Source: Nannocystaceae bacterium (GTDB taxonomy: Bacteria; Myxococcota_A; Polyangia; Nannocystales; Nannocystaceae). Taken from it: a stretch of DNA of 60,117 bases. The stretch covers positions 1 through 60,117 of the forward strand of contig JAGOHL010000017.1 of the NCBI GenBank assembly GCA_017996215.1, given 5' to 3'. Below are positions 11,209-56,147 of the stretch, one piece after another; the stretch's first letter is position 1, and each line of letters opens with the position of its first letter. The position numbers and the translations under genes were made by a program. The notes below the pieces were generated by a model. It was not told the origin of the DNA, ran no database searches, and saw nothing but the letters and a program-made list of their open reading frames with translations.

Positions 11209-11315
11209 GTTCATTTGCTTCCACCATCCGCGGCCGCCGGCCGCCATCGGGTTCGCAGATGGATTGCCGGTCGAGTCGAAACGGATGCATGATTTCGTGT
11301 GGTCGGGTGGGTGGC

Positions 11316-13865
11316 ATGACGGGTGGTGATGGCGACGACGCGGCGTTCGGCCGTGCGCTGGGAGACGTGCGGCAACTCGAGCTCGCGGACGAAGCGACCG
11401 TGCGCGCCGAGCTGTTCGCGCGGATGGGCATCGCTCCGATCGCCCCGCGCCTCGGAGGTCGCTACACACTCGGTCGTCGCCTCGGAAGCGGCGGTTCTGG
11501 GGCGGTCTACGCCGCGCGTGACGACAAGCTCGGTCGCGACGTCGCCATCAAGCTCGTGCGCGTCGGCGGCCTCGATGGCTTCGATGACTCGGCCTCCGAG
11601 GGTCGACTACGCCGCGAGGCGAGAGCCATCGCGCGTCTCGCCCATCCGAACATCGTCGCGGTGTTCGATCTCGGTCGCTACGACTTCGGCGAGCTCGGCT
11701 ACGAGCTCGCCGACGCTCCGGCGCGCGGCCTGTACCTCGTCATGGAGCTCGTCGACGGTGGTGACCTCGCCGGGTGGGCGGCCTCGGGGGCGAGCTTCGC
11801 CGCGCGCATCGAAGTCTTGATCGGCGTCGCCCGCGGTCTGCACGCAGCTCACGGCGCGGGCCTGGTCCACCGCGACGTCAAGCCGGCGAACGTCATCATC
11901 GCCCGCGACGGGACGCCGAAGCTCGCGGACTTCGGTCTCGCGCGCCCCCCGGCGGAGACGACCCGAGATGCCGGGTCAGCGGACGATGACGAGGCGCCGC
12001 GCGACGACGTGACGGCACACGGCACGGTCGTCGGAACGCTGCCGTACATGGCGCCCGAGCAGTTCGGCGGCAGCTCGAGCGCCGCAAGCGATCAGTACGC
12101 GTTCTGCGTCACGGCGGTGGAAATCCTGCTGGGTGAACGGCCGTTCGTCGGTGACGCGAGCGAACAACTCGCGGCGAAGCGCGCTGGCCGAGCCCCCGCG
12201 CTCGAGCGACTGCCGCCGCGACTGCGCGCTGCGCTGCAACGCGGCCTGTGCACGGATCCCGCGGATCGATTTGGGTCGATGCTCGAGCTGAGCGAAGCGC
12301 TCGCCCCGGCGCCACAACGGCGCTTCGCACTCGTCGGCGCCGCGGCGCTCCTCGGCATCGCACTCGCAGGGTGGATCGCCACCCCCGACGACGCCTGTGC
12401 ACCGCTCGCGCGGGCCGCCAGTGCGGTCGAGCGCATGCCGTCGGCGGCCGCACTCGCCGCGACACTCGAAGACGAGGCATCGCGCCTTCGCGCCACACAT
12501 GCGGCCTGCCTCACCCTCGACGACCCGGACACGCGCGCGTGCATGGGCCAGCGTGGTCGTCAGCACGAGCGCCTGCTCGCGAGTCTCGGCGACATCGATG
12601 CCCCTGCGATGCTCCGAGCGTTCCACGCGCTACCCCCCGCCGACGAGTGTGTCGCGCTGCGTGCGGTCGCGTCGGCACCGCCCGAAGCGCTCCGCGACGG
12701 TGTCGATGCCGTGCACGAGTTCGTCGTCACCGCACGAGCACTCGCCGACGCAGGCGAGCTCGAATCTGCAGCGGTCCAGGCGGGTCACGCCATCGCGACC
12801 GCACGGCGCCTCGACTGGCCGCCGGCGCTCGTCGAGGCCAGCATCGTGCACGCGCACGTCGAGTTCGGCCTCGGCCGGGTCGACGCCGCAGAGATCGAGC
12901 TCGTCGACGCCTACTGGTCGGCGGTCGAGCTCGGCAATCTGCCGGAGACCGAGCGCGCGGCTGAGCATCTCGCCCACCTGCACGGCCGTCCTGGAGGCGA
13001 CCGCGGCGAGGCGGAGCGCTGGGAGAAGCGCGCGAATGCCTCGCTCGACGGCATGGGCCGACCACCGTTCGTCGAGGCTCGCCTCGCCGCGATCCGCGGT
13101 GCGAACCGCAACGCGTGGCACGACGAGCCGGCAGCCATCGTCGAGTTCCGCCACGCGCTCGCACTGCTCGAAGCGCAGGGTCTCGACTACCGTCGACAGA
13201 TCGCGACCCTGTCGAGCAACCTCGGCGAGATGCTCACACGGACTGGCCAGCACGCCGAGGCGGAGCGCATGCTGCTGCGTGCGATCGAGCTCGGCGACCC
13301 GGAGGGCATCGCATCGGTTCCCGCCCTGATGCACCTCTCGACCCTGCGACGATCGCAACAACGCCTCGACGAGGCCGACGCGCTGATCCGCGACGCGATT
13401 GCGCGGCTCGACACGGCGGCACCTGCCGGCCATCCATGGCGCGGGCAGATCTTCAACAACCTCGGGGTCATCGCAACACTGCGGCCGGACTTTGCGTCCG
13501 CGGCCGACGCGTTCGCGACCGCGGTGCGATCGCACGAGCAGCTCGGCCTGCGCGACGCAGCGTGGGCGGGGTACCACAAGAACTGGGCCACCGCGGCGGC
13601 GCGCATGCACGAGTGGAGCACGGCGATCGAGCACTTCGAGATTGCGCTCGCGGTGCTCACGAGCGCCGACCCTCGCCGCGACCAAGCGCTCGTCGGCCTC
13701 GCCGAAGCCAACCTCGAACTCGGTGACGTCTCGGCCGCCGCGACCCGCCTGCGCGAGGTCGACCCGTCCCTGCTGGCCCGCGATGCGAGCATGGTGGCCG
13801 AAGTCGACGCGCTGCGCGCTCGCATCACCGCCGCCGAGGCCGAGCGGATAGGATCCCCCGAGTGA
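11316..13865 (+). CDS. Ser/Thr protein kinase (Hanks-type) with long C-terminal TPR/helical repeat domain
   Basis: Gly loop LGSGGSGAVYAA, VAIK, HRDVKPANVII, DFGLA, APE motif. ~590-aa C-terminal helical region. Start at ATG 11316 with GGTGG upstream. Confidence 0.9.
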   Translation: MTGGDGDDAAFGRALGDVRQLELADEATVRAELFARMGIAPIAPRLGGRYTLGRRLGSGGSGAVYAARDDKLGRDVAIKLVRVGGLDGFDDSASEGRLRREARAIARLAHPNIVAVFDLGRYDFGELGYELADAPARGLYLVMELVDGGDLAGWAASGASFAARIEVLIGVARGLHAAHGAGLVHRDVKPANVIIARDGTPKLADFGLARPPAETTRDAGSADDDEAPRDDVTAHGTVVGTLPYMAPEQFGGSSSAASDQYAFCVTAVEILLGERPFVGDASEQLAAKRAGRAPALERLPPRLRAALQRGLCTDPADRFGSMLELSEALAPAPQRRFALVGAAALLGIALAGWIATPDDACAPLARAASAVERMPSAAALAATLEDEASRLRATHAACLTLDDPDTRACMGQRGRQHERLLASLGDIDAPAMLRAFHALPPADECVALRAVASAPPEALRDGVDAVHEFVVTARALADAGELESAAVQAGHAIATARRLDWPPALVEASIVHAHVEFGLGRVDAAEIELVDAYWSAVELGNLPETERAAEHLAHLHGRPGGDRGEAERWEKRANASLDGMGRPPFVEARLAAIRGANRNAWHDEPAAIVEFRHALALLEAQGLDYRRQIATLSSNLGEMLTRTGQHAEAERMLLRAIELGDPEGIASVPALMHLSTLRRSQQRLDEADALIRDAIARLDTAAPAGHPWRGQIFNNLGVIATLRPDFASAADAFATAVRSHEQLGLRDAAWAGYHKNWATAAARMHEWSTAIEHFEIALAVLTSADPRRDQALVGLAEANLELGDVSAAATRLREVDPSLLARDASMVAEVDALRARITAAEAERIGSPE

Positions 13866-45115: not shown

Positions 45116-46417
45116 CTAAGCCTTGCGCTTGCGGAAGATCGCACCCACCGCGGCGACGATGCCAGCGCCCAGCAGCAGCAGCAGCTTCTTGCCCGCGAGC
45201 AAGACCTTGAAGAGGCCCGCGAGCAAGCCGGTCTTGAGCAGCACCTTGCCGGCGATGAGCCCACCGATGCCGTACGCCGCGACCTGGTCGATGTCGGGAT
45301 CGAAGTCGTCGTAGCGCGCGCCCTGCTCGAAGGTGACCTTGGCCAGCAGCGTCTCCATCGCGGGATCGATCTGCTCGAGCTGGTCCATGGTGCCGACCGC
45401 GTTCAGCGACAGCACGCCGGTGCGACCGAGCACGCGCACGTCGTAGTTGAGCGTCGCGGGTGCGTCGGGCGTGTGCAGCTCGCGGGCCCAGTACAGCCGG
45501 TGGTGCTCGGCGTCGTAGTGCGGCGTCTTGGCCCAGCCGGCGAGGGTCAGGGACGGCAGGCCGGCGGCCTCACGCGCGCGGTTGTCGGCGGCGTCCTGCG
45601 TGCGCATCTGTGCCAGGAGCTCGTCGTAGTCGATGTCCTCGGCGTCGTCGTCGTCGACGTGGCCGTCGGCGACGTAGGTCACGACCACGCCGAAGCCGTC
45701 GCGCGCCGACACACCCATGCCCGCGGGCACGATCATCCCGAGCGGCTTGGCGTCCGACGGCGGGTTCGACCACGCCTCGGTCAGCACGCGCTCGGCGTCG
45801 TCCGGCCCGAGGAAGCGAAAGCCCTCGCCGAGCTCGAGCGTGGCGCCGGCATCGGGCAGCGCGATGCTGCCGTGCTGGTAGCTCAGCTGGGCCTCGAAGG
45901 CAGCCCCGGCGGCGGCATCGAAGGCCTCGAGCAGCTCGCGGTCCTCCGGGCTCGCGGCGGCAGGGCCCTGCTCGATGAGCGCCTGCAACCGCGGCATCGG
46001 CATGGCCTCGATGCGGGCACGCAGCGGGGCCGGGAGCTGGGTCACCAGCGCAGCGAGCTCGGGGTTGGCACCGGCCGCCTCACCGACCGTCTGCACCGCG
46101 GTCATCAGCGCCACGACGGTCTCCTGCTCGTAGGTCCGGCTGTGCTCGGGCGTCATGAACGCGGCGTCGAAGGCCTCGGTCGTCATCGCCTCGATGCGCG
46201 TGCGCACCTCGGCGTCGAGCCGCGCGAGCTGTGCGGCGAGCACCGGATCCTCCTTGGCCGCCGCCGCGATGGTGCCTGCGGCGGGCTCCGGGGCCGCCTC
46301 GACGACCTCGGCCGGTGCCTTCGAACGCTTGGGCTTGGCCTGCGCGAGCGAACCCGCGGCGAGCACGAGGGAACAACCGACCATCCAGGTCGCGACGTTG
46401 CGCATGGTGCCGAGCAT
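45116..46417 (-). CDS. Membrane-anchored protein, DUF2167-like
   Basis: Signal MLGTMRNVATWMVGCSLVLAAGSLA. Ala/Glu-rich helical region. Conserved-looking core (SYQHGSIALPDAGATLELGEGFRFLGPDDAERVL). C-terminal TM plus KRKA. Family assignment is from memory and uncertain. Confidence 0.62.
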   Translation of the reverse strand: MLGTMRNVATWMVGCSLVLAAGSLAQAKPKRSKAPAEVVEAAPEPAAGTIAAAAKEDPVLAAQLARLDAEVRTRIEAMTTEAFDAAFMTPEHSRTYEQETVVALMTAVQTVGEAAGANPELAALVTQLPAPLRARIEAMPMPRLQALIEQGPAAASPEDRELLEAFDAAAGAAFEAQLSYQHGSIALPDAGATLELGEGFRFLGPDDAERVLTEAWSNPPSDAKPLGMIVPAGMGVSARDGFGVVVTYVADGHVDDDDAEDIDYDELLAQMRTQDAADNRAREAAGLPSLTLAGWAKTPHYDAEHHRLYWARELHTPDAPATLNYDVRVLGRTGVLSLNAVGTMDQLEQIDPAMETLLAKVTFEQGARYDDFDPDIDQVAAYGIGGLIAGKVLLKTGLLAGLFKVLLAGKKLLLLLGAGIVAAVGAIFRKRKA

Positions 46418-46563
46418 GGAGGATCGCAGCGGGCCTGACAACCTGACCCCGCGCGAACGAGCGAGGAACGTGGTCGACACGCACCCGTTCGTGTTCCAAC
46501 CGAAGTCACGCGCGCGTCGGCCCCGGCTCGCGGTGTGGACAGTCGCCCGCGCGGGCGCGTAGC

Positions 46564-47622
46564 GTGCGGGACGTGCGTCTTGCCTCGCTCGCACTCGCTG
46601 CCCTCGCGCTGGTCGCCTGCCACCGCGCGACGGCGTCCCCATCGACCACCACGCCGTCGAGCATGGTGGTGGCCATGCCAGCACGCGCGACGGTGGACCC
46701 GACGCCGGCGCCCACCGACGCGACGCCGCAGCCGATCCGCGTGGCGATCACCGTCGACGATCTGCCCTCGCACGGCCCGCGTCCCCCCGGCGTCACTCGG
46801 CTGCAGGTGCACGAGCGATTGCTCGCGGCGTTCGCGGCCCACCACGTGCCGCAGGTGTACGGCTTCATCAATGGCGGTCGCGAGGCCGACGGCGACGACG
46901 AGCGCGCGTCGCTGGCCGCGTGGGTCGCCGCCGGCCAGCCGCTTGGCAATCACACCTTCTCGCATCCGCGGCTGCGCGACATCGGCCTGGCGGCGTACCT
47001 GAAGGAGATCGACGCCAACGAGGCCGTGCTCGCGCCGCTCATGGGCGACGATCGCTGGCGGGTGTTCCGCTATCCCTACCTCTTCGAGGGCACCGATCGC
47101 GCCACCACCACGGCGATCCGCGAGCACCTCGCGAAGACCCGGCATCGCGTCGCCGAGGTCACGATCGACTTCTACGACTGGGCGTTCAACCCGCCCTACG
47201 TGCGCTGTCTGGCCAACCACGACGACACCGCCGTGCAGGCGCTGCGCGACACGTTCCTGCGCCACGCCATCCGCGTGCTGCAGTGGAACGAGGCCGCGAG
47301 CCGAGAGATCTGGGGCCGCCCGGTGGCGCACATCCTGTTGCTGCACGTCGGCGCGTTCGATGCCGAGATGATCGAGCCGCTGCTGCAGGCGTACGAGGAC
47401 CTGGGCGTGCAGTGGATCTCCCTCGACGAGGCGCTCGAGGACCCCATCTACGCGCACGTTCCGACCGCCGACGGCGTCACCCAGGGCACGCTGGTCGATC
47501 TGGCCATCGAGGTGGAGCACGCGCCGCATCCACCATGGTTCGAGCACCCCGATGCACTGCTGGCTGCGCTGTGCAAGGAGCCGCAGCCGCCCCAGCCGCG
47601 ACCCTCGAGCCGGCGTCGATGA
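46564..47622 (+). CDS. Polysaccharide deacetylase (NodB homology) family lipoprotein
   Basis: GTG start. MRDVRLASLALAALALVAC signal/lipobox. NodB motifs (VAITVDDLP, GNHTFSHP, FRYPYL). Confidence 0.82.
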   Translation: MRDVRLASLALAALALVACHRATASPSTTTPSSMVVAMPARATVDPTPAPTDATPQPIRVAITVDDLPSHGPRPPGVTRLQVHERLLAAFAAHHVPQVYGFINGGREADGDDERASLAAWVAAGQPLGNHTFSHPRLRDIGLAAYLKEIDANEAVLAPLMGDDRWRVFRYPYLFEGTDRATTTAIREHLAKTRHRVAEVTIDFYDWAFNPPYVRCLANHDDTAVQALRDTFLRHAIRVLQWNEAASREIWGRPVAHILLLHVGAFDAEMIEPLLQAYEDLGVQWISLDEALEDPIYAHVPTADGVTQGTLVDLAIEVEHAPHPPWFEHPDALLAALCKEPQPPQPRPSSRRR

Positions 47623-48899
47623 GCCCAAGCGCGGGGCTACGGCGCGTGGTCGGGATCCCCGGCGCCATCGCGATGGGCCTGGGCTCGATCGTCGGCACCG
47701 GCATCTTCGTGAGCATCGGACTGGCCGCCGAGATCGCCGGCGCGGCGGTGCTGCTCGCGGTGGTGCTGGCTGCGTGCATCGCCGCGGCCAACGGCCTCTC
47801 GAGCGCGCAGCTGGCCGCGGCCCACCCGGTCAGCGGTGGCACCTACGAGTACGGCCATCGCTACCTGTCGCCCGCCTGGGGCTTCACCGCGGGGTGGATG
47901 TTCCTGTGCGCCAAGTCGGCGAGCGCCGCCGCGGCTGCGCTCGCGCTCGCCGCCCACGTGCTGCAGCGACTCGGCCACGACGGCGCGCTGCCCCGCAGCG
48001 GACTCGCGCTCGGCGTCGTCGCGCTGCTGACCTTCGCGGTCGCCGGCGGCATGCGCCGCTCGAGTCGCATCAACGCGGTGATCGTCGGCACCACCGTGTT
48101 GGCCCTCGGAGCACTGGTCGCCACCGGCACGCCGGTCGCGCTCGCGCGCGGCGTCCATCCCGGCGTGCTCGACGATCTGCGCGCCGGCTCGGCGGCGTCG
48201 CTGCTGCACGCCACCGCGCTGATGTTCGTCGCGTACACCGGCTACGGCCGCATCGCGACCCTCGGCGAAGAGATCCGAGAGCCGGCGCGCGACATCCCGC
48301 GGGCGATCCTCGCGACCCTCGGGCTGTCGGCGCTGCTGTACACCGCCGTCACCTGGGTCGCGATCGCCACGCTCGGGGCCCCGGGGCTGGCGGCACACAC
48401 CCGCGACACCGCGGCCCCGCTCGAGGCGGTCGCGGCCGCGATCGCACCGGCGTGGCTACCCACGGTGGTCGCCGTCGGTGCGGTCGCGGCGATGGCCGGC
48501 GTGGTGCTGAACCTGCTGCTCGGCGTGTCGCGGGTGGTGCTGGCGATGGCGCGGCGCGGCGATCTGCCGACCGGGCTCGCCGCGGTCGAGGGCGTCCACG
48601 CATCGCCGGTGCGGGCGGTGCTCGCCACCGGGTCCGCGATCGCGGTGCTCGTCGCGGTGGGCGATCTGCACGCGGCGTGGAGCTTCAGCGCGTTCACGGT
48701 GTTGGTCTACTACGGCATCACCAACCTCGCGGCACTGCGGCTGCCAGCCCACGAGCGTCGGTTTCCGCGGGCGATTGCGGTGTTCGGCCTACTCGCATGT
48801 ATCGGTGTCGCGGTGTTCATCCCGTGGCACACCTGGCTCGTCGGCGTCGCGCTGCTCGGCCTGGGTGCGCTCGGTCGTCGACTCGCCCGTCGCACCTGA
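47619..48899 (+). CDS. APC family amino acid permease
   Basis: ATGA overlap with the deacetylase stop. 12 TM segments. APC signature region (GIPGAIAMGLGSIVGTGIFVS). Confidence 0.88.
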   Translation: MSPSAGLRRVVGIPGAIAMGLGSIVGTGIFVSIGLAAEIAGAAVLLAVVLAACIAAANGLSSAQLAAAHPVSGGTYEYGHRYLSPAWGFTAGWMFLCAKSASAAAAALALAAHVLQRLGHDGALPRSGLALGVVALLTFAVAGGMRRSSRINAVIVGTTVLALGALVATGTPVALARGVHPGVLDDLRAGSAASLLHATALMFVAYTGYGRIATLGEEIREPARDIPRAILATLGLSALLYTAVTWVAIATLGAPGLAAHTRDTAAPLEAVAAAIAPAWLPTVVAVGAVAAMAGVVLNLLLGVSRVVLAMARRGDLPTGLAAVEGVHASPVRAVLATGSAIAVLVAVGDLHAAWSFSAFTVLVYYGITNLAALRLPAHERRFPRAIAVFGLLACIGVAVFIPWHTWLVGVALLGLGALGRRLARRT

Positions 48900-48956
48900 C
48901 CATCCGATCATTTGACCCCGCGGGTCCGGCCGCGCGAGGCTTGGTGCAACCTGGGC

Positions 48957-51900
48957 ATGGACGCACCGCGAACACTGCGATCACTCGCGAAGGACCTCGG
49001 GCTGGAGTGGATCGACGGGCCCGCGACCGCCACGCTCGAGGCCGACATCGCCCGCGCGAATCGAGCGTTCGACAGGAACGACCACGAGAAGATCGGCTTC
49101 GGCGCCAGGGATGTCAGCACGGCCGGTGCGCTCGTGGGCGCGCTCGCGTCGCTGGTGCGCAAGCCCAACCTCGCGCCGATGCTCGCGCGCGTGCGTGCTC
49201 GCGTCGACGAGGTCACGCCGGCCGAGGGCGAGCCCACCATCGACGTCGGCGTCGGCGAAGCCATCGCCCGGGCCGCCCGCGACGACACCGACCGCGTCTT
49301 CGACGACCTCTTCCTCGCCCGCGCGCTCCTCGAGCAACCCGGCGAGCTCGTGCACGGCGGTCTCGCGCCGTTCGGGCTCTCGGCCGAGGCGCTACGGCGC
49401 GGGCTGGACGATGCACTCGCGCTCGAGCTCGACGGCGAACGCGATCGACCGCTCGCCGACAACCAACGCGAGCTCGACGACGCGGTGTTCCGTGCCGCCG
49501 GCCGTCGGCTCGGCGACCTCGGCGAGGCCGCGCGGTGGCTCGAGCGCGGCCACGACGGCGACGAGGCGATGTACGCCGCCGGTAGCCCGAGCGCGCGACG
49601 CATCGGCTCGCACCGCGCGCTGCGACGACACGCGCGCAGCAACGGTGAGCTCCGCCTGGTGCCGCGGTTGCTGGCCGATTTCGCGTTCTCGGACGCGGCC
49701 CGCGAGGTGCTGGGGCTGGCCGATCGCTTACGCGGCGATGCTCGACACGTCCACGTCGAGCACCTGATGGTCGCGCTCTACGACGCCAAGGCGAGTCCCG
49801 CCCGCGCGGCGTTCGATCGAGCCGGCGTCTCGCGCGACGCCATGCTCGCGCGGCTGCACGGCAGCGAGCTCGCCGAGCAGCGCTCGGCAACCTACGTCGC
49901 CAGCGAGCGCGTACCGCCGCTGTCGTCCCATGCCGCGCTCGCGCTGGTCCACGCCGCGCGGCACGCCGCGAACCGCGGCGATGCGACCCTCCGCGGTCGC
50001 GATCTGCTCACCGGCGTGTTCGCGGTCGAGGGCTGCCACATCGTCGAGAAGTTCACCGACGTCCGCGTCGCGCTGGCCAGCGGACCCGCGCCCGCGCGCG
50101 AGCCCGACGAGACTCGGACCCCCGCCGCGCCGCAGCATCCGATGGTCGTCGCGTCGAGCGTGGCGCGCTTCGGCGGCGACGGCCTCGACGGCCCCGACGT
50201 GCTCGGCTTCACGCTCGAGGTCGATGCGCTCGCGCGCTTGATTGCCTCGGAGGGCATCGATCCGCCGCTGTCGATCGGGCTCTTCGGTGAGTGGGGCTCG
50301 GGCAAGAGCTACTTCATGCGACGCCTGCGCGAGCGGATCGAGCAGCTCGCGGCCGCCACCCGCCGTCGCCGTGAGCGCGACGACGTGCCGCCACCGGCGT
50401 ACGTGGGCCACGTGGTGCAGGTCGAGTTCAACGCGTGGAACTACGTCGAGGTCGATCTGTGGGCGAGCCTGGTCGCGCACATCTTCGATCGGCTGCACGC
50501 CCACGTGATCGACGAGCCCGGCCTCGAGCAGCGCCAGTGGGAGAGCTTGCTGCACCGCCTCGACGACGCCGAGAACCGCCGCCACGATGCCAAGCAGGCG
50601 CTCGAGCTGGCGCAAGCGCGGCTCGACATGCGCCGCCGCGAGCAGGCGGCCCGCGAGCGCACGCTCGCCTATCAGATCGAGATCCTCCGCCGCCACGCCA
50701 AGCTCAAGCGACCGATCGCGGAGATCGAGGGCACGCTCGGCATCGCGGCCGCGCGCGAGTTGTGGGACGCGATCGTGCTCCGCAGCAGCCGCGCGACCGC
50801 GGTCATCAAGGCCATGCCCGACTCGCTGCGGGCGGCACGATCGCTGTTCACCGGTCCGGCAGCGTGGTGGCTCATGGCTGCGATCGTGCTCGTGATCGGC
50901 GGCTTGCTGCTGGCGCGCCAGCTCGAGTGGCTGCCCGATCTCGCGGCGGTGGCCGCCGCGATGCCGCTGCTGCTGGCGTGGGTGCGCAAGGCGCTCGGCC
51001 GTAGCGACGCGCTGCTCGCCGCCATCGAGGCGTTCCAAGAGGGGCTGCTCGAGCTCGAGCGCTCGAAGCAGGAGGTCGATCGTGAGGCACTCGAGCGCCT
51101 GCGCGACGACGCGATGGCGGTCGAACAGGCCCGCGCCGAGCACGACGCCGAGCGGGCGCGCGTCGACTCGTTGCGCGACGAGATCGCGCGGCTGTACCCC
51201 GGTGAGCAGCTCGCCGATTTCCTGGCCGATCGCGCGGCCAGCAGCGACTACCGCCGCCACCTCGGCCTGCCCGCGCTGGTGCGACGCGACTTCGAGCGGC
51301 TCGGCCGACTGGTGCGGCCGCACACCCACCGCCTACCACGCGATCACGTGACCGGCCTCGCACTGGCCCAGGCGCCGCAGCACCTACTCGACATGCTGCA
51401 TCGCCTCGAGCCCGACGCGACCGAACCGTTCGAGGTCGTGCGAGTCGAGCGGTCCGGCGACCGCGTGCGAGCGTTCGCACCCGACGGGCGCTGCGCGATC
51501 TTCAGTTGCTGCGAGCCGATCGAGGGTGACGAGCACCCTGCGCCCTACGAGATCGATCTGCGCTCCGTCGACGACGAGCCGCTCGGGGGCCCCCGCGACG
51601 AGCTGGGCCGCCTGGGTCGGCGCGTGCCGGAGCGCCTGGTCGACGGCCTGCGACCCGCGATGATTCCCGCGCGTCTCGCCGAGCTGCTGCGCCGCGATGC
51701 GCCGCTGCGGGGCGAGCGACTCGTGCACGACACCACCCTCGACCGCTGGGTGCTGACCGATCACGACGGCGCCCGCCGGGTCGAGATCGGCTTCGACGGC
51801 GAGCTCGCGATCGTCGAGATCGGTTGGCCGATGCACCCGACGATCGAGCGCATCGTGCTGTACATCGATGATCTGGATCGCTGCCCGCCCGAGCGCGTGG

Positions 51901-53006
51901 TCGAGGTGCTGGGCGCGGTGCACCTGCTGCTGGCGTTCCCGCTGTTCGTGGTGGTGGTGGCCGTCGACGAGCGCTGGCTGGTGGGCTCACTCGAGGATCA
52001 GCACGCCCAGCAGCTGCGACCCGCCGCGGCCCCGAACGCCGGCAACACGCTCGCGATGGGCGCGTTCGACGGTCTCGCGACCCCCCGCGACTACCTCGAG
52101 AAGATCTTCCAGATCCCGTACTGGGTGCCGCGCATGACCACCGCGTCGGCGCGCGACCTCATCGCCGACATGGTCGCGCAGGGCGAGCGCATCGAGCTGC
52201 CGCGCGCCGACCCGACCCGCGTGGTGTGGGTGGATCGCCCGCGACCGAGCTCGACGCCGCCGCCCGCGGACGGCCCCCTGCCCGAGGCCGAGACCGCGCC
52301 GGCCGAGGTCCCGGGCCCCGACGTGGAGGACGAGCCGAGCGGTGGCAGCGTCCCGGGACCCGACGTCGAGTCCAGCGAGGGTGACGACGGCGGCATGCCG
52401 GGCTTCATGAGCCTCGCCGGTACCGCGGTGAGCAACGCGGTCGAGGCGATCTCGGAGGCGTTCTCCGGCGCCGCCGAGCCCACCGCCGCGCCGACGACGG
52501 ACGACGAGTCGGGCGCCGACGACGAGCTGCTCCGCGTGCAGCCGATCTCGATCGGCGAGCGCGAGCGACTGGCGCTGCAGGCCCTGGTGCCGTTGGTGCA
52601 GAAATCGCCGCGCGCGGTGAAGCGCTTCGTCAACGTCTATCGCGTCATCCGCAGCACGCTCGGTGATCAGGCCGACGTCTTCATGCAGCACGACGACGAC
52701 GAGGTGCCGTTCGGACCCGCGACCGTGCTCATCGCGATGATGGTCGGCGACCCCGAGGCCGGCGCCTCGTTGATCGCCGCGCTCGAGCAGGACGGTGACG
52801 ACGACGGCTCGCTGCACGACAGCATGCAGCGGTGGATCGACGCCAAGCCGACGCTCGGCGAGGCCACGAGCATGGCGCTCACGCTCGCGCTGACTCGCGC
52901 CGGCTGGGCTCGGCAGCGTCGGGTCGATCTGCGGGGCGTGGTCGGTCGCGTGCGCCGCTTCTCGTTCGGCGCGCGCAACCTCGGCGTCGGCCAGCAGCGA
53001 CACTGA
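48957..53006 (+). CDS. KAP-family P-loop NTPase (transmembrane NTPase) with ~440-aa N-terminal Clp_N-like repeat module; 1349 aa
   Basis: Walker A LFGEWGSGKSYFMRRL. TM hairpin inserted in the NTPase domain (WWLMAAIVLVIGGLLLARQ...LAAVAAAMPLLLAWV). Walker B hhhhYIDDLDRC (RIVLYIDDLDRCPPERVVEVLGAVHLLLAFPLFVVVVAVDERWL). C-terminal KAP signature QKSPRAVKRFVNVYRVIRS. N-terminal region contains three Clp_N-like repeats (e.g. HVEHLMVALYDAKASPARAAFDRAGVSRDAMLARL). Confidence 0.85.
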   Translation: MDAPRTLRSLAKDLGLEWIDGPATATLEADIARANRAFDRNDHEKIGFGARDVSTAGALVGALASLVRKPNLAPMLARVRARVDEVTPAEGEPTIDVGVGEAIARAARDDTDRVFDDLFLARALLEQPGELVHGGLAPFGLSAEALRRGLDDALALELDGERDRPLADNQRELDDAVFRAAGRRLGDLGEAARWLERGHDGDEAMYAAGSPSARRIGSHRALRRHARSNGELRLVPRLLADFAFSDAAREVLGLADRLRGDARHVHVEHLMVALYDAKASPARAAFDRAGVSRDAMLARLHGSELAEQRSATYVASERVPPLSSHAALALVHAARHAANRGDATLRGRDLLTGVFAVEGCHIVEKFTDVRVALASGPAPAREPDETRTPAAPQHPMVVASSVARFGGDGLDGPDVLGFTLEVDALARLIASEGIDPPLSIGLFGEWGSGKSYFMRRLRERIEQLAAATRRRRERDDVPPPAYVGHVVQVEFNAWNYVEVDLWASLVAHIFDRLHAHVIDEPGLEQRQWESLLHRLDDAENRRHDAKQALELAQARLDMRRREQAARERTLAYQIEILRRHAKLKRPIAEIEGTLGIAAARELWDAIVLRSSRATAVIKAMPDSLRAARSLFTGPAAWWLMAAIVLVIGGLLLARQLEWLPDLAAVAAAMPLLLAWVRKALGRSDALLAAIEAFQEGLLELERSKQEVDREALERLRDDAMAVEQARAEHDAERARVDSLRDEIARLYPGEQLADFLADRAASSDYRRHLGLPALVRRDFERLGRLVRPHTHRLPRDHVTGLALAQAPQHLLDMLHRLEPDATEPFEVVRVERSGDRVRAFAPDGRCAIFSCCEPIEGDEHPAPYEIDLRSVDDEPLGGPRDELGRLGRRVPERLVDGLRPAMIPARLAELLRRDAPLRGERLVHDTTLDRWVLTDHDGARRVEIGFDGELAIVEIGWPMHPTIERIVLYIDDLDRCPPERVVEVLGAVHLLLAFPLFVVVVAVDERWLVGSLEDQHAQQLRPAAAPNAGNTLAMGAFDGLATPRDYLEKIFQIPYWVPRMTTASARDLIADMVAQGERIELPRADPTRVVWVDRPRPSSTPPPADGPLPEAETAPAEVPGPDVEDEPSGGSVPGPDVESSEGDDGGMPGFMSLAGTAVSNAVEAISEAFSGAAEPTAAPTTDDESGADDELLRVQPISIGERERLALQALVPLVQKSPRAVKRFVNVYRVIRSTLGDQADVFMQHDDDEVPFGPATVLIAMMVGDPEAGASLIAALEQDGDDDGSLHDSMQRWIDAKPTLGEATSMALTLALTRAGWARQRRVDLRGVVGRVRRFSFGARNLGVGQQRH

Positions 53007-53014
53007 CGCTGGCG

Positions 53015-53536
53015 TCACGCGCCCGGATCGAGCTCGCCGGGTGGCGGATCGGTGCCCGGCGGCTTGCTCGGCCCGCCTTCGCTGGGATCGAGCTGACCGG
53101 GGGCGCCGCCGCCGGGCGATGGCACCTCGACGGTGTGCAGCTGACACCCGCCGCAACTCTGGCCGTCGTCGGAGATGCCCGAGCACTGACCGCTGCAGGT
53201 GAGCACGCGGTCGCTGCCGCCCGCCTCGCAGGCCTGGGCCTCGCTGCACCCACTGGCGCAGCGACACTGGAAGCCGGTCACGCCGTCGTCGAGGTAGACG
53301 ACGCCGTTCTTCGGATCGATTTCGTAGTCGACGCCATCGGCGAGCACGATCTCGGTGGTGGACTTGACGGCGTAGGTCTTGGTCTGGGAGCCGACCTGCA
53401 CGACGTCGTCGTCGCTGCACTCGGTGACGTCGTCGAGCTTGCCGCCGCGTAGCTCGAGACTGTCGTCGTCGTCGAGCGCCGCGCAGCCGAGGCCGCCCAA
53501 GAACATCGAGAGGAGGATCGAGGTGGTGTAGCGCAT
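53015..53536 (-). CDS. Small secreted Cys-rich lipoprotein (paralog A)
   Basis: MRYTTSILLSMFLGGLGCAALDD signal/lipobox. C..GC/C.GC.G motifs. Pro-rich tail PGQLDPSEGGPSKPPGTDPPPGELDPGA. Clear paralogy with the downstream gene. Confidence 0.62.
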   Translation of the reverse strand: MRYTTSILLSMFLGGLGCAALDDDDSLELRGGKLDDVTECSDDDVVQVGSQTKTYAVKSTTEIVLADGVDYEIDPKNGVVYLDDGVTGFQCRCASGCSEAQACEAGGSDRVLTCSGQCSGISDDGQSCGGCQLHTVEVPSPGGGAPGQLDPSEGGPSKPPGTDPPPGELDPGA

Positions 53537-53552
53537 GGGTGCTGGCTCCGCT

Positions 53553-54062
53553 TCAGAACGTGGGGTCGACCGAGCCGGGTCCGGGGTCGCTGCCCGGCGG
53601 CTTGGGGTCGGGGGTGTTGGTGGGGTCGAGCTGGCCCGAGCCGGGATCGGCCGGATTGGGCGGTGGATCGGCGCGGTGCCAGCCGCAGCCCCAGCACGGC
53701 CGACCATCGCTGCTGATGGTGCCGTCGCAGGTGCCGGTGCAGATGGCGTCGATCGGGCCGGCGCTCACCTGGCAAACGCTGCCACCGCAGCCGCCGTCGC
53801 AGCGGCAGACGTACGTCGCCGCCTTGTCGATCGTCACGGTGGTGCCGCCCTTGTCGAGCTCGATCTCGTCGCCGAGCGACTCCAACCGCGATGGCGAGCT
53901 GATGCGCGCGTATTCGTCTTCGTAGGTCTGATACGCCGCGCCCGGATCGACGCACTCGAGCGCCTCCCCGCGGAACTCGTCTGCATCGCCGCGACTGCGT
54001 GCGACCGGATCGCAGCCGATCGCGAGCGCCAGCACCCCCCACGTCCATGGTCGTCGATTCAT
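53553..54062 (-). CDS. Small secreted Cys-rich lipoprotein (paralog B)
   Basis: MNRRPWTWGVLALAIGCDP signal/lipobox. YVCRCDGGCGGSVCQ...CTGTCDGTISSDGRPCWGCGWH plus the same Pro-rich LDP/KPPG/DPGPG tail as paralog A. Confidence 0.62.
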   Translation of the reverse strand: MNRRPWTWGVLALAIGCDPVARSRGDADEFRGEALECVDPGAAYQTYEDEYARISSPSRLESLGDEIELDKGGTTVTIDKAATYVCRCDGGCGGSVCQVSAGPIDAICTGTCDGTISSDGRPCWGCGWHRADPPPNPADPGSGQLDPTNTPDPKPPGSDPGPGSVDPTF

Positions 54063-54159
54063 GCGCAGCTAGACCCGGCGGCGAGGATTTCGATCGTGCA
54101 AAGTGCCCGCGACCCGCGGGGCCGAGAGAACCTTTGCCGCCAGCCGCTGTCCTCGCTTC

Positions 54160-55254
54160 GTGCGTCTTCGCCTGGCCACCTCGATGCTCCTGCTGCCGTG
54201 CTGCACGCCCGTCGTGGCCGCCCCCCGGTCGACCACCCCCGCGCAGACCACTCCCGCGCAGACCACTCCCGCGCAGACCGAGGCTGCTCCGATCGCGGCC
54301 GCCGACGACGACCCCGCGACGCCGCGCTGGTGCATCCCGAGCGCTCCACCGCCGACGCCACCCGGTCCGAGCGTCGCCCACTACGATTGCCAGCGTCACG
54401 CCACCGCGGTGGTCCGCGCGGTCGATGCCCGACTGCGCAAGCTGTGGACTCCCGCGCGCTCGCCCAGCCGGCTCGAGATCCATCGCACCTGCGATCCGCT
54501 CGCCGACACGATCACCCGCGTGGTGATCGAGAGTGGCTACGGCCACGGCTTCAGCCTGCACCTGTGGCAGCTCGAGCGCACCGACGACCGCGACTGGGCG
54601 GTATCGCGGCTCGACTACCGCGGCGACAGTGCCGATGGCGTCGCGAGCGTCGGTCGCGTCGGCGCACGCGTGATCGATCCGCTCCTCGCGGCCTCGCGCG
54701 TCGCGTTGGTGTCCGACGCGTTCGAGGTCACGCTGCCGTCGGAGGGACTCAGCCTGACCGCGGCGATGGGCTCCGGCGACTTCCATCGCGTCGTGCGCCT
54801 CGAAGACGACGACGGCGACGTGCTCGAGCGCCGCTTCACCGGCTACCCCGGCAACGGCCTCGAGGAGGCGCCCGTGGTGGTCGCCAGCGACGCGCTGCTC
54901 GAGGTGCTCGAGGCGGTGCCGCTCGCCGAGCGCCCCGCCGAGCCAGTCGATCGCGGGTTCTTCGTCGAGCGCTACGCCGCCGCCGCGCCCCACTTCGACG
55001 ACGAGTTCTTCTGGTGGGTCACCGAGCGCTACATCGTGATGGCGCGCTCGTTCGGGCAGGCCTCGCTGATCCCGAGCCTGGTCGAGCGCGCCACCAAGCC
55101 CGGCGAGCACTCGGTCGCGCGCGCGCGTGAGACCGCCGTCGCCGCGCTCGCGGCGGTGACGGGCCACGACCTGCGTGTCGGTGCCGACGGCAAGCCCCGC
55201 GCGCTCGAGCTCGCGGCGGCCGACTACGCCGCGGCATGCCTGCCGGTTCGCTAG
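54160..55254 (+). CDS. Hypothetical secreted protein with (TPAQT)3 repeat
   Basis: GTG 54160 gives (M)RLRLATSMLLLPCCTPVVAAP, a signal-like segment; alternative starts at 54103 and 54184. 15-bp tandem repeat cccgcgcagaccact x3. No known domain. Confidence 0.55.
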   Translation: MRLRLATSMLLLPCCTPVVAAPRSTTPAQTTPAQTTPAQTEAAPIAAADDDPATPRWCIPSAPPPTPPGPSVAHYDCQRHATAVVRAVDARLRKLWTPARSPSRLEIHRTCDPLADTITRVVIESGYGHGFSLHLWQLERTDDRDWAVSRLDYRGDSADGVASVGRVGARVIDPLLAASRVALVSDAFEVTLPSEGLSLTAAMGSGDFHRVVRLEDDDGDVLERRFTGYPGNGLEEAPVVVASDALLEVLEAVPLAERPAEPVDRGFFVERYAAAAPHFDDEFFWWVTERYIVMARSFGQASLIPSLVERATKPGEHSVARARETAVAALAAVTGHDLRVGADGKPRALELAAADYAAACLPVR

Positions 55255-55418
55255 TGACCCACCACAATCGCTGTGTCGAGGTACTAGTCGGGCTGCACGC
55301 GCGTCGATGGTGCGCCGGGCGGCGTGTCGGCCAAGCCGTGGGCCATCGGCCAATCTGCTGACCACTCGGCTGCCGGGCTGGCACCGCAGCACCATCCTCG
55401 TCTCGAAGGAGAGAGACG

Positions 55419-56147
55419 ATGACCATGGACATGCACGACGAGATCGCGATCGTCACCGGGGCGAGCCGCGGGCTCGGGCTGGCACTGTCGCACGCGCTGG
55501 CACGACGCGGAGCGAAGGTCGCCATGCTCGCCCGCGACGAGGACGCGCTGGCACGGGCGGCGCGCGAGGTCGGCGAGTTCGGCGAGGTGCTGGCGATCGC
55601 CGCCGACATCGGTGATCCCACCCAGGCGCCGTCGATCGCCGCTCGCGTCGCGGCGCGCTTCGGGCCGGCGACCCTCGTGGTGCACAACGCCAGCACGCTG
55701 GGCGCGGTGCCGCTGCAGCTGCTGGCCGACACCGACCCGCGGATGTTCGCCGCGACGATGGCGACCAATCTCATCGGCCCGTTCGCGCTGTCCCATGCCG
55801 TGGTCGGATCGATGGTGCTGCGCGGGCACGGCACGCTGGTGCACATCAGCTCCGACGCAGCGGTCGAGCCGTATCCGCGCTGGGGCGCCTATGCGGTGTC
55901 GAAGGCTGGCCTCGATCACCTCGCGCGCATCTGGGCCGCGGAGCTCGACGGCACCGGGGTGCGAGTGCTCGCGATCGACCCCGGCGAGATGGACACGCAG
56001 ATGCACGCCGACGCGATCCCCGACGCCGACCGCGGCACGCTGGCACGCCCGAGCGACGTGGCCGCGCGCATCGTCGCACTGCTCGGCCGAAGCGAGCGCG
56101 CCTTGCCCGTGCGCTTGCAGGCCGCCGACATCGAGGTGACGACATGA
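55419..56147 (+). CDS. SDR family NAD(P)-dependent oxidoreductase
   Basis: RBS GGAGAGAG upstream. TGASRGLGLALSHALARRGAKV (TGxxxGxG). NASTLG. Catalytic YxxxK (YAVSK). Confidence 0.9.
   Translation: MTMDMHDEIAIVTGASRGLGLALSHALARRGAKVAMLARDEDALARAAREVGEFGEVLAIAADIGDPTQAPSIAARVAARFGPATLVVHNASTLGAVPLQLLADTDPRMFAATMATNLIGPFALSHAVVGSMVLRGHGTLVHISSDAAVEPYPRWGAYAVSKAGLDHLARIWAAELDGTGVRVLAIDPGEMDTQMHADAIPDADRGTLARPSDVAARIVALLGRSERALPVRLQAADIEVTT

Follow-up and report, generated by a model that had tools for sequence, protein, structure and literature searches.

The KAP NTPase gene with a Clp N-terminal module described here is found on a Nannocystaceae contig, within a 60,117-nt stretch of DNA that was analysed as a whole (the window). 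The ATG is at 48957 and the stop codon at 53004-53006, and the ORF between them is uninterrupted. The gene order is TetR, RND efflux, DUF2167, polysaccharide deacetylase, amino-acid permease, KAP, then SDR and QueA; the KAP gene lies 58 nt downstream of the deacetylase-permease pair, on the same strand. An earlier sequence-only reading placed two paralogous secreted Cys-rich lipoproteins downstream on the opposite strand, and these are present with 36% identity and lipobox-like signal peptides. The features are as follows:

48957..53006, plus strand: complete Clp_N-KAP NTPase gene, stop codon included, 1349 aa (ORF and translation)
48957..49241, plus strand: residues 1-95, fast-evolving lineage-specific helical head (HMMER profile search, dN/dS)
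49242..49631, plus strand: residues ~96-225, copy A, probably a degenerate Clp N-domain (marginal evidence)
49674..50090, plus strand: residues ~240-378, two-repeat Clp N-terminal domain, copy B (Pfam, family profile)
50187..50522, plus strand: residues 411-522, first half of the KAP P-loop core, carrying Walker A and the FNAWNY motif (motifs, invariant columns, AF2)
50523..51338, plus strand: residues 523-794, coiled-coil stalk and predicted transmembrane hairpin (AF2 helices, hydrophobicity, basic flanks)
51339..51836, plus strand: residues 795-960, beta-rich clade-specific insert just before the Walker B strand (AF2, length comparison)
51837..52187, plus strand: residues 961-1077, second half of the P-loop core, carrying Walker B LYIDDLDRC (nt 51858-51884)
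52188..52496, plus strand: residues 1078-1180, Pro/Ala/Glu/Gly-rich linker, disordered (AF2 pLDDT, composition)
52497..53003, plus strand: residues 1181-1349, C-terminal helical domain with KAP signature SPRAVKRFVNVYR (invariant residues, AF2)
53015-53536, minus strand: Cys-rich lipoprotein ORF 1 (lipobox-like signal peptide)
53553-54062, minus strand: Cys-rich lipoprotein ORF 2 (lipobox-like signal peptide)

The protein clearly belongs to the KAP family; the Pfam KAP_NTPase profile (PF07693), proposed earlier as a check, matches in two stretches with 88.6 bits against a cut-off of 20 (E 5.7e-25). The hallmarks listed by the sequence-only reading are all present: Walker A GEWGSGKS at residues 444-451 (nt 50286-50309), Walker B YIDDLDRC at 969-976 (LYIDDLDRC at 968-976), and the C-terminal SPRAVKRFVNVYRVIRS at 1217-1233, with the KAP signature at nt 52605-52643. 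Both Walker motifs are invariant in 40-49 relatives; G444, W446, G447, G449, K450, F491, N492, A493 and W494 are invariant across 40 family members, and the invariant residues of the C-terminal domain are P1218, R1219, R1223, N1226 and Y1228. The AF2 model showing the KAP core has a pLDDT of 76.5 and a pTM of 0.69, with ~90 for residues 411-522, ~80-90 for the helical C-terminal domain and <50 for the linker. The claimed hairpin inside the NTPase fold is recovered as a prediction: TM1 (635-653, nt 50859-50915) and TM2 (662-680, nt 50940-50996) both fall between the two Walker motifs, with positively charged flanks and an intervening loop of ~8 residues. AF2 places helices at 634-655 and from 663 onwards over this stretch at low local confidence; long helices at 523-577 and 663-745 are predicted to form a coiled-coil stalk with the hairpin at its tip, and nearly all of ~50 scanned family members have a hydrophobic segment 190-240 aa past Walker A. 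A third hydrophobic stretch, 984-1002, was rejected as a transmembrane segment, being a strand and helix of the NTPase core in the AF2 model. The hairpin is thus predicted to interrupt the NTPase domain and to leave the P-loop in the cytoplasm, as expected of a KAP protein; because the stalk splits the core, both ATPase halves and the whole N-terminal region would face the cytoplasm. The beta-rich insert contains eight strands (pLDDT mostly 75-93) and is without a Pfam match; this segment measures 182-238 aa in the relatives P0001-P0004, as compared to a linker of 11-47 aa in most family members. The protein had been called unusually large, which is not the case within a subfamily that spans 876-1503 aa.

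Three Clp_N repeats had been proposed over the first ~440 aa; of these a two-repeat domain at ~240-378 stands and a degenerate copy at ~96-225 is probable, whereas the head (1-95) falls away. Pfam Clp_N (PF02861) gives 17.4 bits on the full-length protein, below the threshold of 20.7; however, residues 1-443 alone reach 25.4 bits, and orthologues 31-37 bits. A family profile of copy B (~240-378 and relatives) matches Clp_N and the N-domains of ClpC, ClpB and ClpA at E 4.7e-9 to 1e-4 with dozens of Clp chains at the top. The alignment covers positions 3-138 of N-domains 130-155 residues long, and therefore the whole double repeat of two tandem ~70-residue units; the matches include 8ad9 and 9p2p, both ClpC2. 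The motif HVEHLMVALYD, given earlier as an example, is found at residues 266-276. By profile comparison residues ~240-378 are considered a genuine two-repeat Clp N-domain; the eight-helix fold is taken from sequence profiles only, because the AF2 model of 1-443 is unusable (pLDDT 44; 4+4 helices at 246-374, at low confidence). Repeat 1 of copy B keeps the xEH motif, with E268 and H269 at the ClpC E32 position and S245 at the T7 position, all invariant in five orthologues; the second pocket is not conserved, with R348 where E106 stands in ClpC. For residues ~96-225 the evidence is marginal: the 1-245 profile has as its top PDB match 1khy, a ClpB N-domain (E 0.01; residues 100-217 against 13-135), hhalign pairs residues 120-153 with repeat 1 of copy B (P=0.02-0.03), and the equivalent stretch of the orthologue P0002 scores 15 bits with Pfam Clp_N; this is probably a second, degenerate Clp N-domain. 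An exhaustive HMMER search of 1.84 billion representatives with the 1-245 profile returned only this Nannocystaceae family and one compositional false positive, and the head had no detectable relative outside the lineage in that search.

Full-length orthologues share 94, 60, 58 and 46% identity, and the KAP gene is under purifying selection, with a whole-gene dN/dS of 0.19 against the 94% orthologue. Purifying selection is strong in the core (0-0.13), and the C-terminal helical domain has a value of 0.04. The head displays 0.74 and residues 241-1349 display 0.11; when nonsynonymous and synonymous changes in the head are set against those in residues 96-1349, a Fisher test gives p=1.5e-6. The head value of 0.74 fits relaxed constraint equally well. 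The linker also has a dN/dS of 0.74, its identity being 93% to P0001 and 12-57% in more distant orthologue pairs, and the beta-rich insert changes faster than the core. A second independent close pair shows the same rate gradient along the protein, the N-terminal part of which evolves much faster than the genes beside it.

Among 40 subfamily members the N-terminal modules include TIR (9/40), Clp_N (7/40) and trypsin-like domains (2/40), as well as LRR, tyrosinase and papain-like modules; plasmid relatives carry WD40, HEAT-like and TIR-like modules. An effector-Clp_N-KAP order, the effector being TIR or trypsin-like, is seen in P0016, P0017, P0018 and P0025. The suggestion that the combination is not a described architecture holds for the literature, where a search for Clp_N-KAP fusions found no paper describing one, but not for databases, where at least 10 proteins already carry precomputed PF02861 and PF07693; the protein is an undescribed variant within the known KAP family, not a new kind of system. 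The subfamily is patchily spread over more than 10 phyla, and no conserved neighbour family was found among 252 neighbours of 49 loci. A handful of the 130 immediate neighbours of chromosomal relatives match defence models, a weak enrichment. The subfamily is present in 7 of 72,556 plasmid records and was not found in phages; all 5 inspected plasmid relatives are beside conflict or mobile genes, namely SIR2, 2-deoxyribosyltransferase, DarT with macro, VapBC, Fic/Phd, a restriction enzyme, NB-ARC, integrases or IS elements. Such module swaps, patchiness and plasmid contexts are typical of conflict systems.

What was observed is how the protein is built, the family to which it belongs, how selection acts along it and where it and its relatives lie in their genomes; it is hypothesized, at a probability of about 0.5, that the KAP protein is a conflict- or immunity-type NTPase switch that works as a single protein, is anchored in the membrane and is gated by a ligand. 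By likeness to the ClpC N-domain, the Clp N-type module would be the ligand-binding, auto-inhibitory part; the ligand may be a peptide or protein signal, possibly from a phage or competitor, and its binding would free the KAP core for NTP binding or hydrolysis and for oligomerisation at the membrane. Because no enzymatic effector domain is present in the protein, output would most likely proceed through the clustered membrane hairpins, by making the membrane permeable or letting ions pass, of which PifA and Tmn are reported examples; alternatively, an unlinked partner may provide it. For the family as a whole, the role of a sensor in defence or signalling has the best support: the N-terminal modules vary, no partner gene is conserved and plasmid relatives lie in conflict islands; the earlier proposal of a sensor or effector of an undescribed defence or signalling system is upheld to that extent, although this copy lies outside a defence island.

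The setting of this copy allows a tentative alternative without an immune role, in which a resident membrane NTPase of Nannocystaceae would serve as a scaffold or in signalling; its Clp N-type domains would bind endogenous proteins (e.g., unfolded or tagged envelope or transport proteins), and the protein would organise an NTP-dependent membrane complex, as the eukaryotic Kidins220/ARMS does. The KAP-SDR-QueA synteny is kept in two other Nannocystaceae at 58-60% KAP identity and, together with the housekeeping neighbourhood, suits a resident gene passed on by vertical descent and not a mobile defence island; the same-strand position 58 nt past the deacetylase-permease pair, the purifying selection on the whole core, the rarity on plasmids and the absence from phages are also in keeping with a resident role. 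No defence or mobile-element genes were found near the KAP gene, and PADLOC, proposed earlier as a check, matches elsewhere in the window only a generic Ser/Thr kinase domain 35 kb away. A resident role is harder to reconcile with the phyletic patchiness, the swapping of N-terminal TIR, protease, LRR and WD40 modules, the plasmid copies in conflict islands and an N-terminal part that outpaces the neighbouring genes; furthermore, the most distant orthologue (L007) has zero neighbours in common with the window. The sequence-only reading had named, as an outcome against itself, a conserved housekeeping gene without association to defence islands: there is no such island here, but a conserved housekeeping gene is not what is seen, because the family is patchy across phyla. 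The Cys-rich lipoprotein genes are missing from two more distant syntenic relatives; their products are therefore not considered partners of the KAP protein, and the conservation of this pairing that the earlier reading asked about is not observed.

It is improbable that the protein regulates Clp proteolysis or acts as a decoy for it, a reading by analogy only, with the Clp N-only protein ClpC2 of mycobacteria as the model, in which membrane-tethered Clp N-domains would compete with ClpA, ClpB or ClpC for adaptors, phospho-arginine or N-domain ligands. Both the full-length alignment of copy B to ClpC, ClpC2 and ClpB N-domains and the invariant E268, H269 and S245 would suit such a role; the unconserved second pocket, with its R348, would not, and no Clp genes were found near the KAP gene. 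In relatives the same module follows a TIR or trypsin-like effector domain, an arrangement that speaks for conflict and not for proteostasis. That the N-terminal 440 aa are a separate upstream gene joined by a frameshift, as the sequence-only reading had allowed, or that the ORF is a decaying pseudogene, is refuted, with no supporting point found: the start MxxPxTLxxxAxxL and its codon are common to orthologues at 46-94% identity, the same uninterrupted architecture recurs in 4 independent assemblies (94% identity) and in relatives at 46-60%, GC3 is 0.91 throughout the gene, and dN/dS is 0.19.

The proposed membrane-anchored NTPase switch can be compared with several known systems. The KAP family of P-loop NTPases was reportedly described by Aravind et al. 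in 2004, with Kidins220/ARMS and PifA among its members. With the family (PF07693) the protein shares Walker A GxWGxGKS, Walker B hhhDDLDRC, the C-terminal SPRAxKRFVNxYR helix domain, transmembrane helices within the NTPase domain, a cytoplasmic P-loop and variable accessory domains; it differs in the unusual length of the segment that separates the two Walker motifs (330-580 aa in this subfamily, with coiled-coil stalk and hairpin), in the ~170-aa beta-rich insert of its clade and in the tandem Clp N-type module at its N-terminus. Proteins that join a KAP NTPase to an uncharacterised region defend against phage, for which Walker B and the fused region are required (PMC13552941). These EF_KAP-type proteins and their metagenomic relatives, from Firmicutes and beside serine recombinases, are alike at the level of the KAP domain; however, their fused region is C-terminal and their one transmembrane helix N-terminal (PMC13552941).

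PADLOC matches of the protein at E<=1 are only QatA, PifA, PDC-S20 and PDC-S49. Membership in QatA was rejected, as NCBIfam QatA gives 68.8 bits against a cut-off of 600 over the Walker B region only; a Qat system was likewise rejected, the neighbours being a permease and small secreted proteins with no QatBCD beside the gene. For PifA the best PADLOC stretch aligns residues 414-466 with profile positions 17-69 of 720, and membership was rejected; PifA is reported to be without transmembrane helices (PMC13001434). A second, lower-scoring PifA stretch also exists. Tmn, which the sequence-only reading had counted among KAP NTPases, is assigned in recent work to the YobI family of NTPases, phylogenetically distinct from KAP, and is activated by a phage protein, with Mg2+ export and plasmolysis as output at the membrane (PMC13001434); no Tmn model is among the PADLOC matches, and membership was rejected. 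Tmn and this protein are both membrane NTPases encoded by one gene, and would have in common a pair of transmembrane helices within the P-loop domain and long helical sensor arms in the cytosol; the sensor of Tmn consists of C-terminal ARM/HEAT repeats, whereas that of this protein would be the N-terminal Clp_N module.

The AAA+-like core resembles Orc/Cdc6 and RADAR RdrA (PDB 8fnt, 8fnu; identity 13-16%). RdrA is a soluble protein whose partner is the adenosine deaminase RdrB; RADAR membership was rejected, since no RdrB-like gene, transmembrane hairpin or Clp_N is held in common. In ClpA, ClpB and ClpC the double-repeat domain matched end to end by residues ~240-378 is also N-terminal to an AAA+-like ATPase. 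Here, however, it is joined to a KAP rather than a Clp/Hsp100 core, and the protein therefore has no pore-loop unfoldase; it keeps one of the two phospho-arginine pocket glutamates of ClpC and stands in tandem with a degenerate copy. The ClpC N-domain binds adaptors, phospho-arginine and unfolded segments, and keeps the ATPase resting until a ligand arrives (PMC12583610). ClpN repeats are fused to vWA in the predicted NTP-dependent conflict systems of Kaur et al. 2020, in which KAP proteins are not treated (PMC7159879). With those systems and the STAND/Avs-type NTPases this protein shares a variable sensor or effector module on a conserved oligomerising NTPase, and its relatives share their TIR and trypsin-like effectors; it differs from both in its NTPase clade and in being membrane-anchored.

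The KAP gene is an uninterrupted ORF that runs on the plus strand from an ATG at 48957 to a stop codon at 53004-53006 and encodes 1349 aa; its GC3 of 0.91 is typical of a real gene, and the GC content of the window is ~70%. The motifs quoted in the sequence-only reading are all present in the protein: Walker A GEWGSGKS (residues 444-451), Walker B YIDDLDRC (residues 969-976), the KAP signature SPRAVKRFVNVYRVIRS (residues 1217-1233) and, in the N-terminal region, HVEHLMVALYD (residues 266-276). Its assignment of the protein to the KAP NTPases is borne out by Pfam, with KAP_NTPase scoring 88.6 bits in the full-length protein against a cut-off of 20, and its observation is largely right. A 94%-identical full-length copy in the same gene order is found in four independent assemblies; metagenome-assembled Nannocystaceae genomes supply further full-length relatives (60, 58 and 46% identity), which places the window in a Nannocystaceae myxobacterium, and the start MxxPxTLxxxAxxL is common to the 94, 60, 58 and 46% relatives. 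Due to this conserved start, the copies in four assemblies and a whole-gene dN/dS of 0.19 against the 94% orthologue (purifying selection), a frameshift fusion or pseudogene is excluded, and the earlier concern that the N-terminal extension might be a separate upstream ORF is dispelled.

The N-terminal region had been proposed to resemble Clp N-domains throughout. Pfam gives Clp_N only 17.4 bits in the full-length protein (residues 265-295), below the 20.7 cut-off; when residues 1-443 are scanned alone the score is 25.4 bits, and the N-terminal parts of orthologues reach 31-37 bits, with two matching stretches in one orthologue. A profile of residues ~240-378 (copy B) and the equivalent parts of six relatives matches the solved N-domains of a Clp_N protein, ClpC, ClpC1, ClpC2, ClpB and ClpA; the match spans the whole two-repeat domain (profile 3-138 against chain 4-133, E 4.7e-9 to 1e-4), and by these profile matches copy B is predicted to be a genuine Clp N-domain. 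Residues ~96-225 (copy A) are probably a second, degenerate one: the top PDB match of a profile of residues 1-245 is the ClpB N-domain 1khy (E 0.01; residues 100-217 against 13-135), hhalign matches residues 120-153 to the first repeat of copy B (P 0.02-0.03), the same level at which copy B's own two repeats match each other, and the equivalent stretch of the orthologue P0002 scores 15 bits for Clp_N. The proposal thus stands for one domain and probably for a second. The head (residues 1-95) and the degenerate copy are lineage-specific at the sequence level, as an exhaustive HMMER search of 1.84 billion representatives with the 1-245 profile finds only this Nannocystaceae family and P0053, a repetitive cadherin/VCBS-like protein dismissed as a compositional false positive. 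Only profiles detected the Clp N-domains; searching PDB sequences with residues 1-440 by phmmer gave no match. Protein-database queries with residues 1-405 or 791-966 returned nothing, not even the 94% orthologue, which is taken as an artefact rather than an absence of homologues. AF2 modelling of residues 1-443 from a 5-sequence alignment reached a pLDDT of 44, which is too low for a fold search.

The remainder of the protein is modeled better; AF2 with a 49-sequence alignment gives residues 401-1349 a pLDDT of 76.5 and a pTM of 0.69, with the following predicted order:

Residues 411-522: first half of the P-loop core
Residues 523-577: long helix leading outwards
Residues 634-655 and the start of 663-745: two hydrophobic helices
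After the hydrophobic helices: long helix leading back
Residues ~808-956: beta-rich insert, pLDDT mostly 75-93
Residues 965-971: Walker B strand, then the remaining core
Residues 1078-1180: disordered linker rich in Pro/Ala/Glu/Gly
After the linker: helical C-terminal domain with the KAP signature

By hydropathy, a hydrophobic segment lies 190-240 aa past Walker A in nearly all of the ~50 relatives scanned. The hairpin here has basic flanks and a short loop, from which both ATPase halves are predicted to face the cytoplasm. Specific to the Nannocystaceae clade, the beta-rich insert measures 182-238 aa there; most relatives have a linker of 11-47 aa at the same place. At 51339-51836 of the window (~170 aa, directly before the Walker B strand) the AF2 model folds it into two four-stranded meanders, and it has no Pfam match. 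Against the PDB, the KAP part gave only noise by sequence search and nothing significant by Foldseek.

Constraint is uneven along the gene when it and its neighbours are compared with the 94% orthologue.

dN/dS by region against the 94% orthologue
Neighbouring genes: 0.09-0.39
KAP core segments: 0-0.13
Residues 1-95: 0.74 (34 nonsynonymous, 17 synonymous)
Disordered linker: 0.74

The ratio of nonsynonymous to synonymous changes in the head departs from that in the remainder of the gene (Fisher p=1.5e-6), and a second independent close pair of orthologues, P0002 and P0003, displays the same gradient, with the head and copy A 72-78% identical and the core 94-98%. This gradient would fit a specificity-determining N-terminus; relaxed constraint is a realistic alternative explanation of the fast N-terminus. 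Synonymous divergence from the locus of the 94% relative is ~0.26 over the first 380 codons (48957-50096), 0.17 over the whole gene and 0.045-0.12 in the flanking genes, which hints at recombination or gene conversion of the N-terminal part with a more divergent allele.

Homologues retrieved with the full-length query are 876-1503 aa (the two weakest, marginal matches left out) and have in common the core, the long insert between Walker A and Walker B and the C-terminal domain. Their N-termini vary: TIR is found in 9 of 40, Clp_N in 7 and trypsin-like domains in 2, with LRR, tyrosinase and papain-like modules also among the 40, and copies on plasmids carry WD40, HEAT-like or TIR-like modules. 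Four members (P0016, P0017, P0018 and P0025) place trypsin and/or TIR before Clp_N and KAP. A family-specific Clp_N profile matches 10 of 100 members strongly and ~8 more weakly, and in every case the module lies between the N-terminus and Walker A. The Clp_N-KAP architecture is thus recurrent. The combination is already on record in databases as a Pfam pairing, and no description of the architecture was found in the literature; ClpN repeats fused to vWA do occur in conflict systems (Kaur et al., PMC7159879). The grammar of the subfamily is a variable sensor or effector, an optional Clp N-type module, and a KAP core interrupted by a stalk with its membrane hairpin. In one metagenomic Clp_N-KAP relative (P0015; L054 4484-10139) a gene for a 640-aa Amidase_2 protein of peptidoglycan amidase/PGRP type lies 17 nt downstream of the KAP gene and in the same orientation.

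The surroundings of relatives are diverse, with no conserved neighbour family across 49 loci; a conserved partner gene in the subfamily was discounted after all-against-all BLAST of 252 neighbours gave a single cluster, of three. Among 130 immediate neighbours there are two integrases and few matches to defence models (Cas3, a type II methyltransferase, an LmuB-like protein and two PDC candidates). The family was not found in phages and occurs on 7 of 72,556 plasmids; the surroundings of all five plasmid copies inspected are of the conflict type:

L055: KAP overlapping a SIR2 gene, then 2-deoxyribosyltransferase; IS66 adjoins
L057: KAP overlapping DUF2971; VapBC and an integrase nearby
Third copy: integrase, DUF4062, KAP, macro and DarT, SIR2
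Fourth copy: Fic/Phd
L058: restriction enzyme, second KAP, NB-ARC

The Rhizobiaceae plasmid copies (L055 6669-12417, L057 6681-11305) carry N-terminal Clp_N-like helical repeats. In both, the KAP stop overlaps the downstream start, of SIR2 ahead of the nucleoside 2-deoxyribosyltransferase in L055 and of DUF2971 in L057; such overlaps suggest versions of the system in which a second gene encodes the effector. The member on Nostoc PCC 7120 plasmid alpha (L058 3627-10520) is a 2297-aa protein in which HEAT/ARM-like repeats take up ~1400 aa ahead of the KAP core, and it adjoins the second KAP protein, the restriction endonuclease and the NB-ARC protein.

The main rival to an immune role is a resident, non-immune membrane scaffold, which is favoured by the conserved housekeeping synteny of the copy in the window. 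The Pfam content of the window is housekeeping, and the KAP gene starts 58 nt after a deacetylase-permease pair on the same strand. Downstream lie the following, then SDR and QueA:

53015-53536, minus strand: Cys-rich secreted protein, lipobox-like signal, Pro-rich tail
53553-54062, minus strand: paralogous Cys-rich secreted protein (36% identical), lipobox-like signal, Pro-rich tail
54103-55254, plus strand: 383-aa ORF

The three form a block that is kept in the 94% relatives, and none has a Pfam family. In two syntenic Nannocystaceae loci with KAP 58-60% identical (L005, L006), SDR and QueA directly follow the KAP gene and the block is not found between KAP and SDR; the Cys-rich lipoproteins are therefore neither conserved with the Clp_N-KAP gene, as had been raised, nor regarded as its functional partners. 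Scanning 46300-55500 for consensus promoters and terminators gave no match, which is an uninformative result in myxobacterial sequence of 72% GC. Elsewhere in the window PADLOC matches only the kinase domain of one 868-aa Ser/Thr protein kinase (11259-13865), 35 kb away; the matches (PD-T4-6, C3a189, mad6, MkoA) are judged generic, and the protein is probably one of the ordinary kinases of myxobacteria, not a defence gene product.

For the copy in the window we infer a function that is plausible by analogy. The best-supported reading is that a single protein, anchored in the membrane, would work as a KAP NTPase switch in conflict or immunity, with its Clp N-type module as the ligand-binding gate; recent work on ClpC offers the explicit analogy, as its N-domain binds adaptors, phospho-arginine and unfolded segments and keeps the ATPase resting until ligand comes (PMC12583610). 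A bolder proposal, considered unlikely at about one chance in four, holds that membrane-anchored KAP immune receptors form a new class whose ligand sensor is this module. The module would recognise a peptide or post-translational mark, such as a tag resembling phospho-arginine or a stretch of unfolded or foreign protein, and would gate oligomerisation of the KAP ring, with specificity tuned by the hypervariable head and the clade-specific beta insert. The same gate would control fused TIR or trypsin-like effectors in relatives; here, the role of effector would fall to the clustered membrane hairpins. If true, the logic by which Clp chaperones recognise adaptors and substrates would be carried over into prokaryotic immunity.

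A role of KAP NTPases in membrane-associated conflict was reportedly predicted two decades ago. Phage protection has been demonstrated only recently (PMC13552941). A well-understood ligand-binding domain sits exactly where a regulatory gate is expected, and therefore provides a concrete, testable entry point to KAP NTPase activation; the TIR-Clp_N-KAP relatives would offer an easy enzymatic read-out. Output of the switch would pass through the membrane hairpins, because the KAP protein contains no enzymatic effector domain and known systems act at the membrane: PifA causes membrane depolarisation and nucleotide leakage, and Tmn causes Mg2+ export and plasmolysis (PMC13001434). The protein belongs to none of Tmn, QatA, PifA and RADAR. 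The earlier interpretation was partly right. In its architecture the protein is a so far undescribed variant of a known family and does not amount to a new kind of system.
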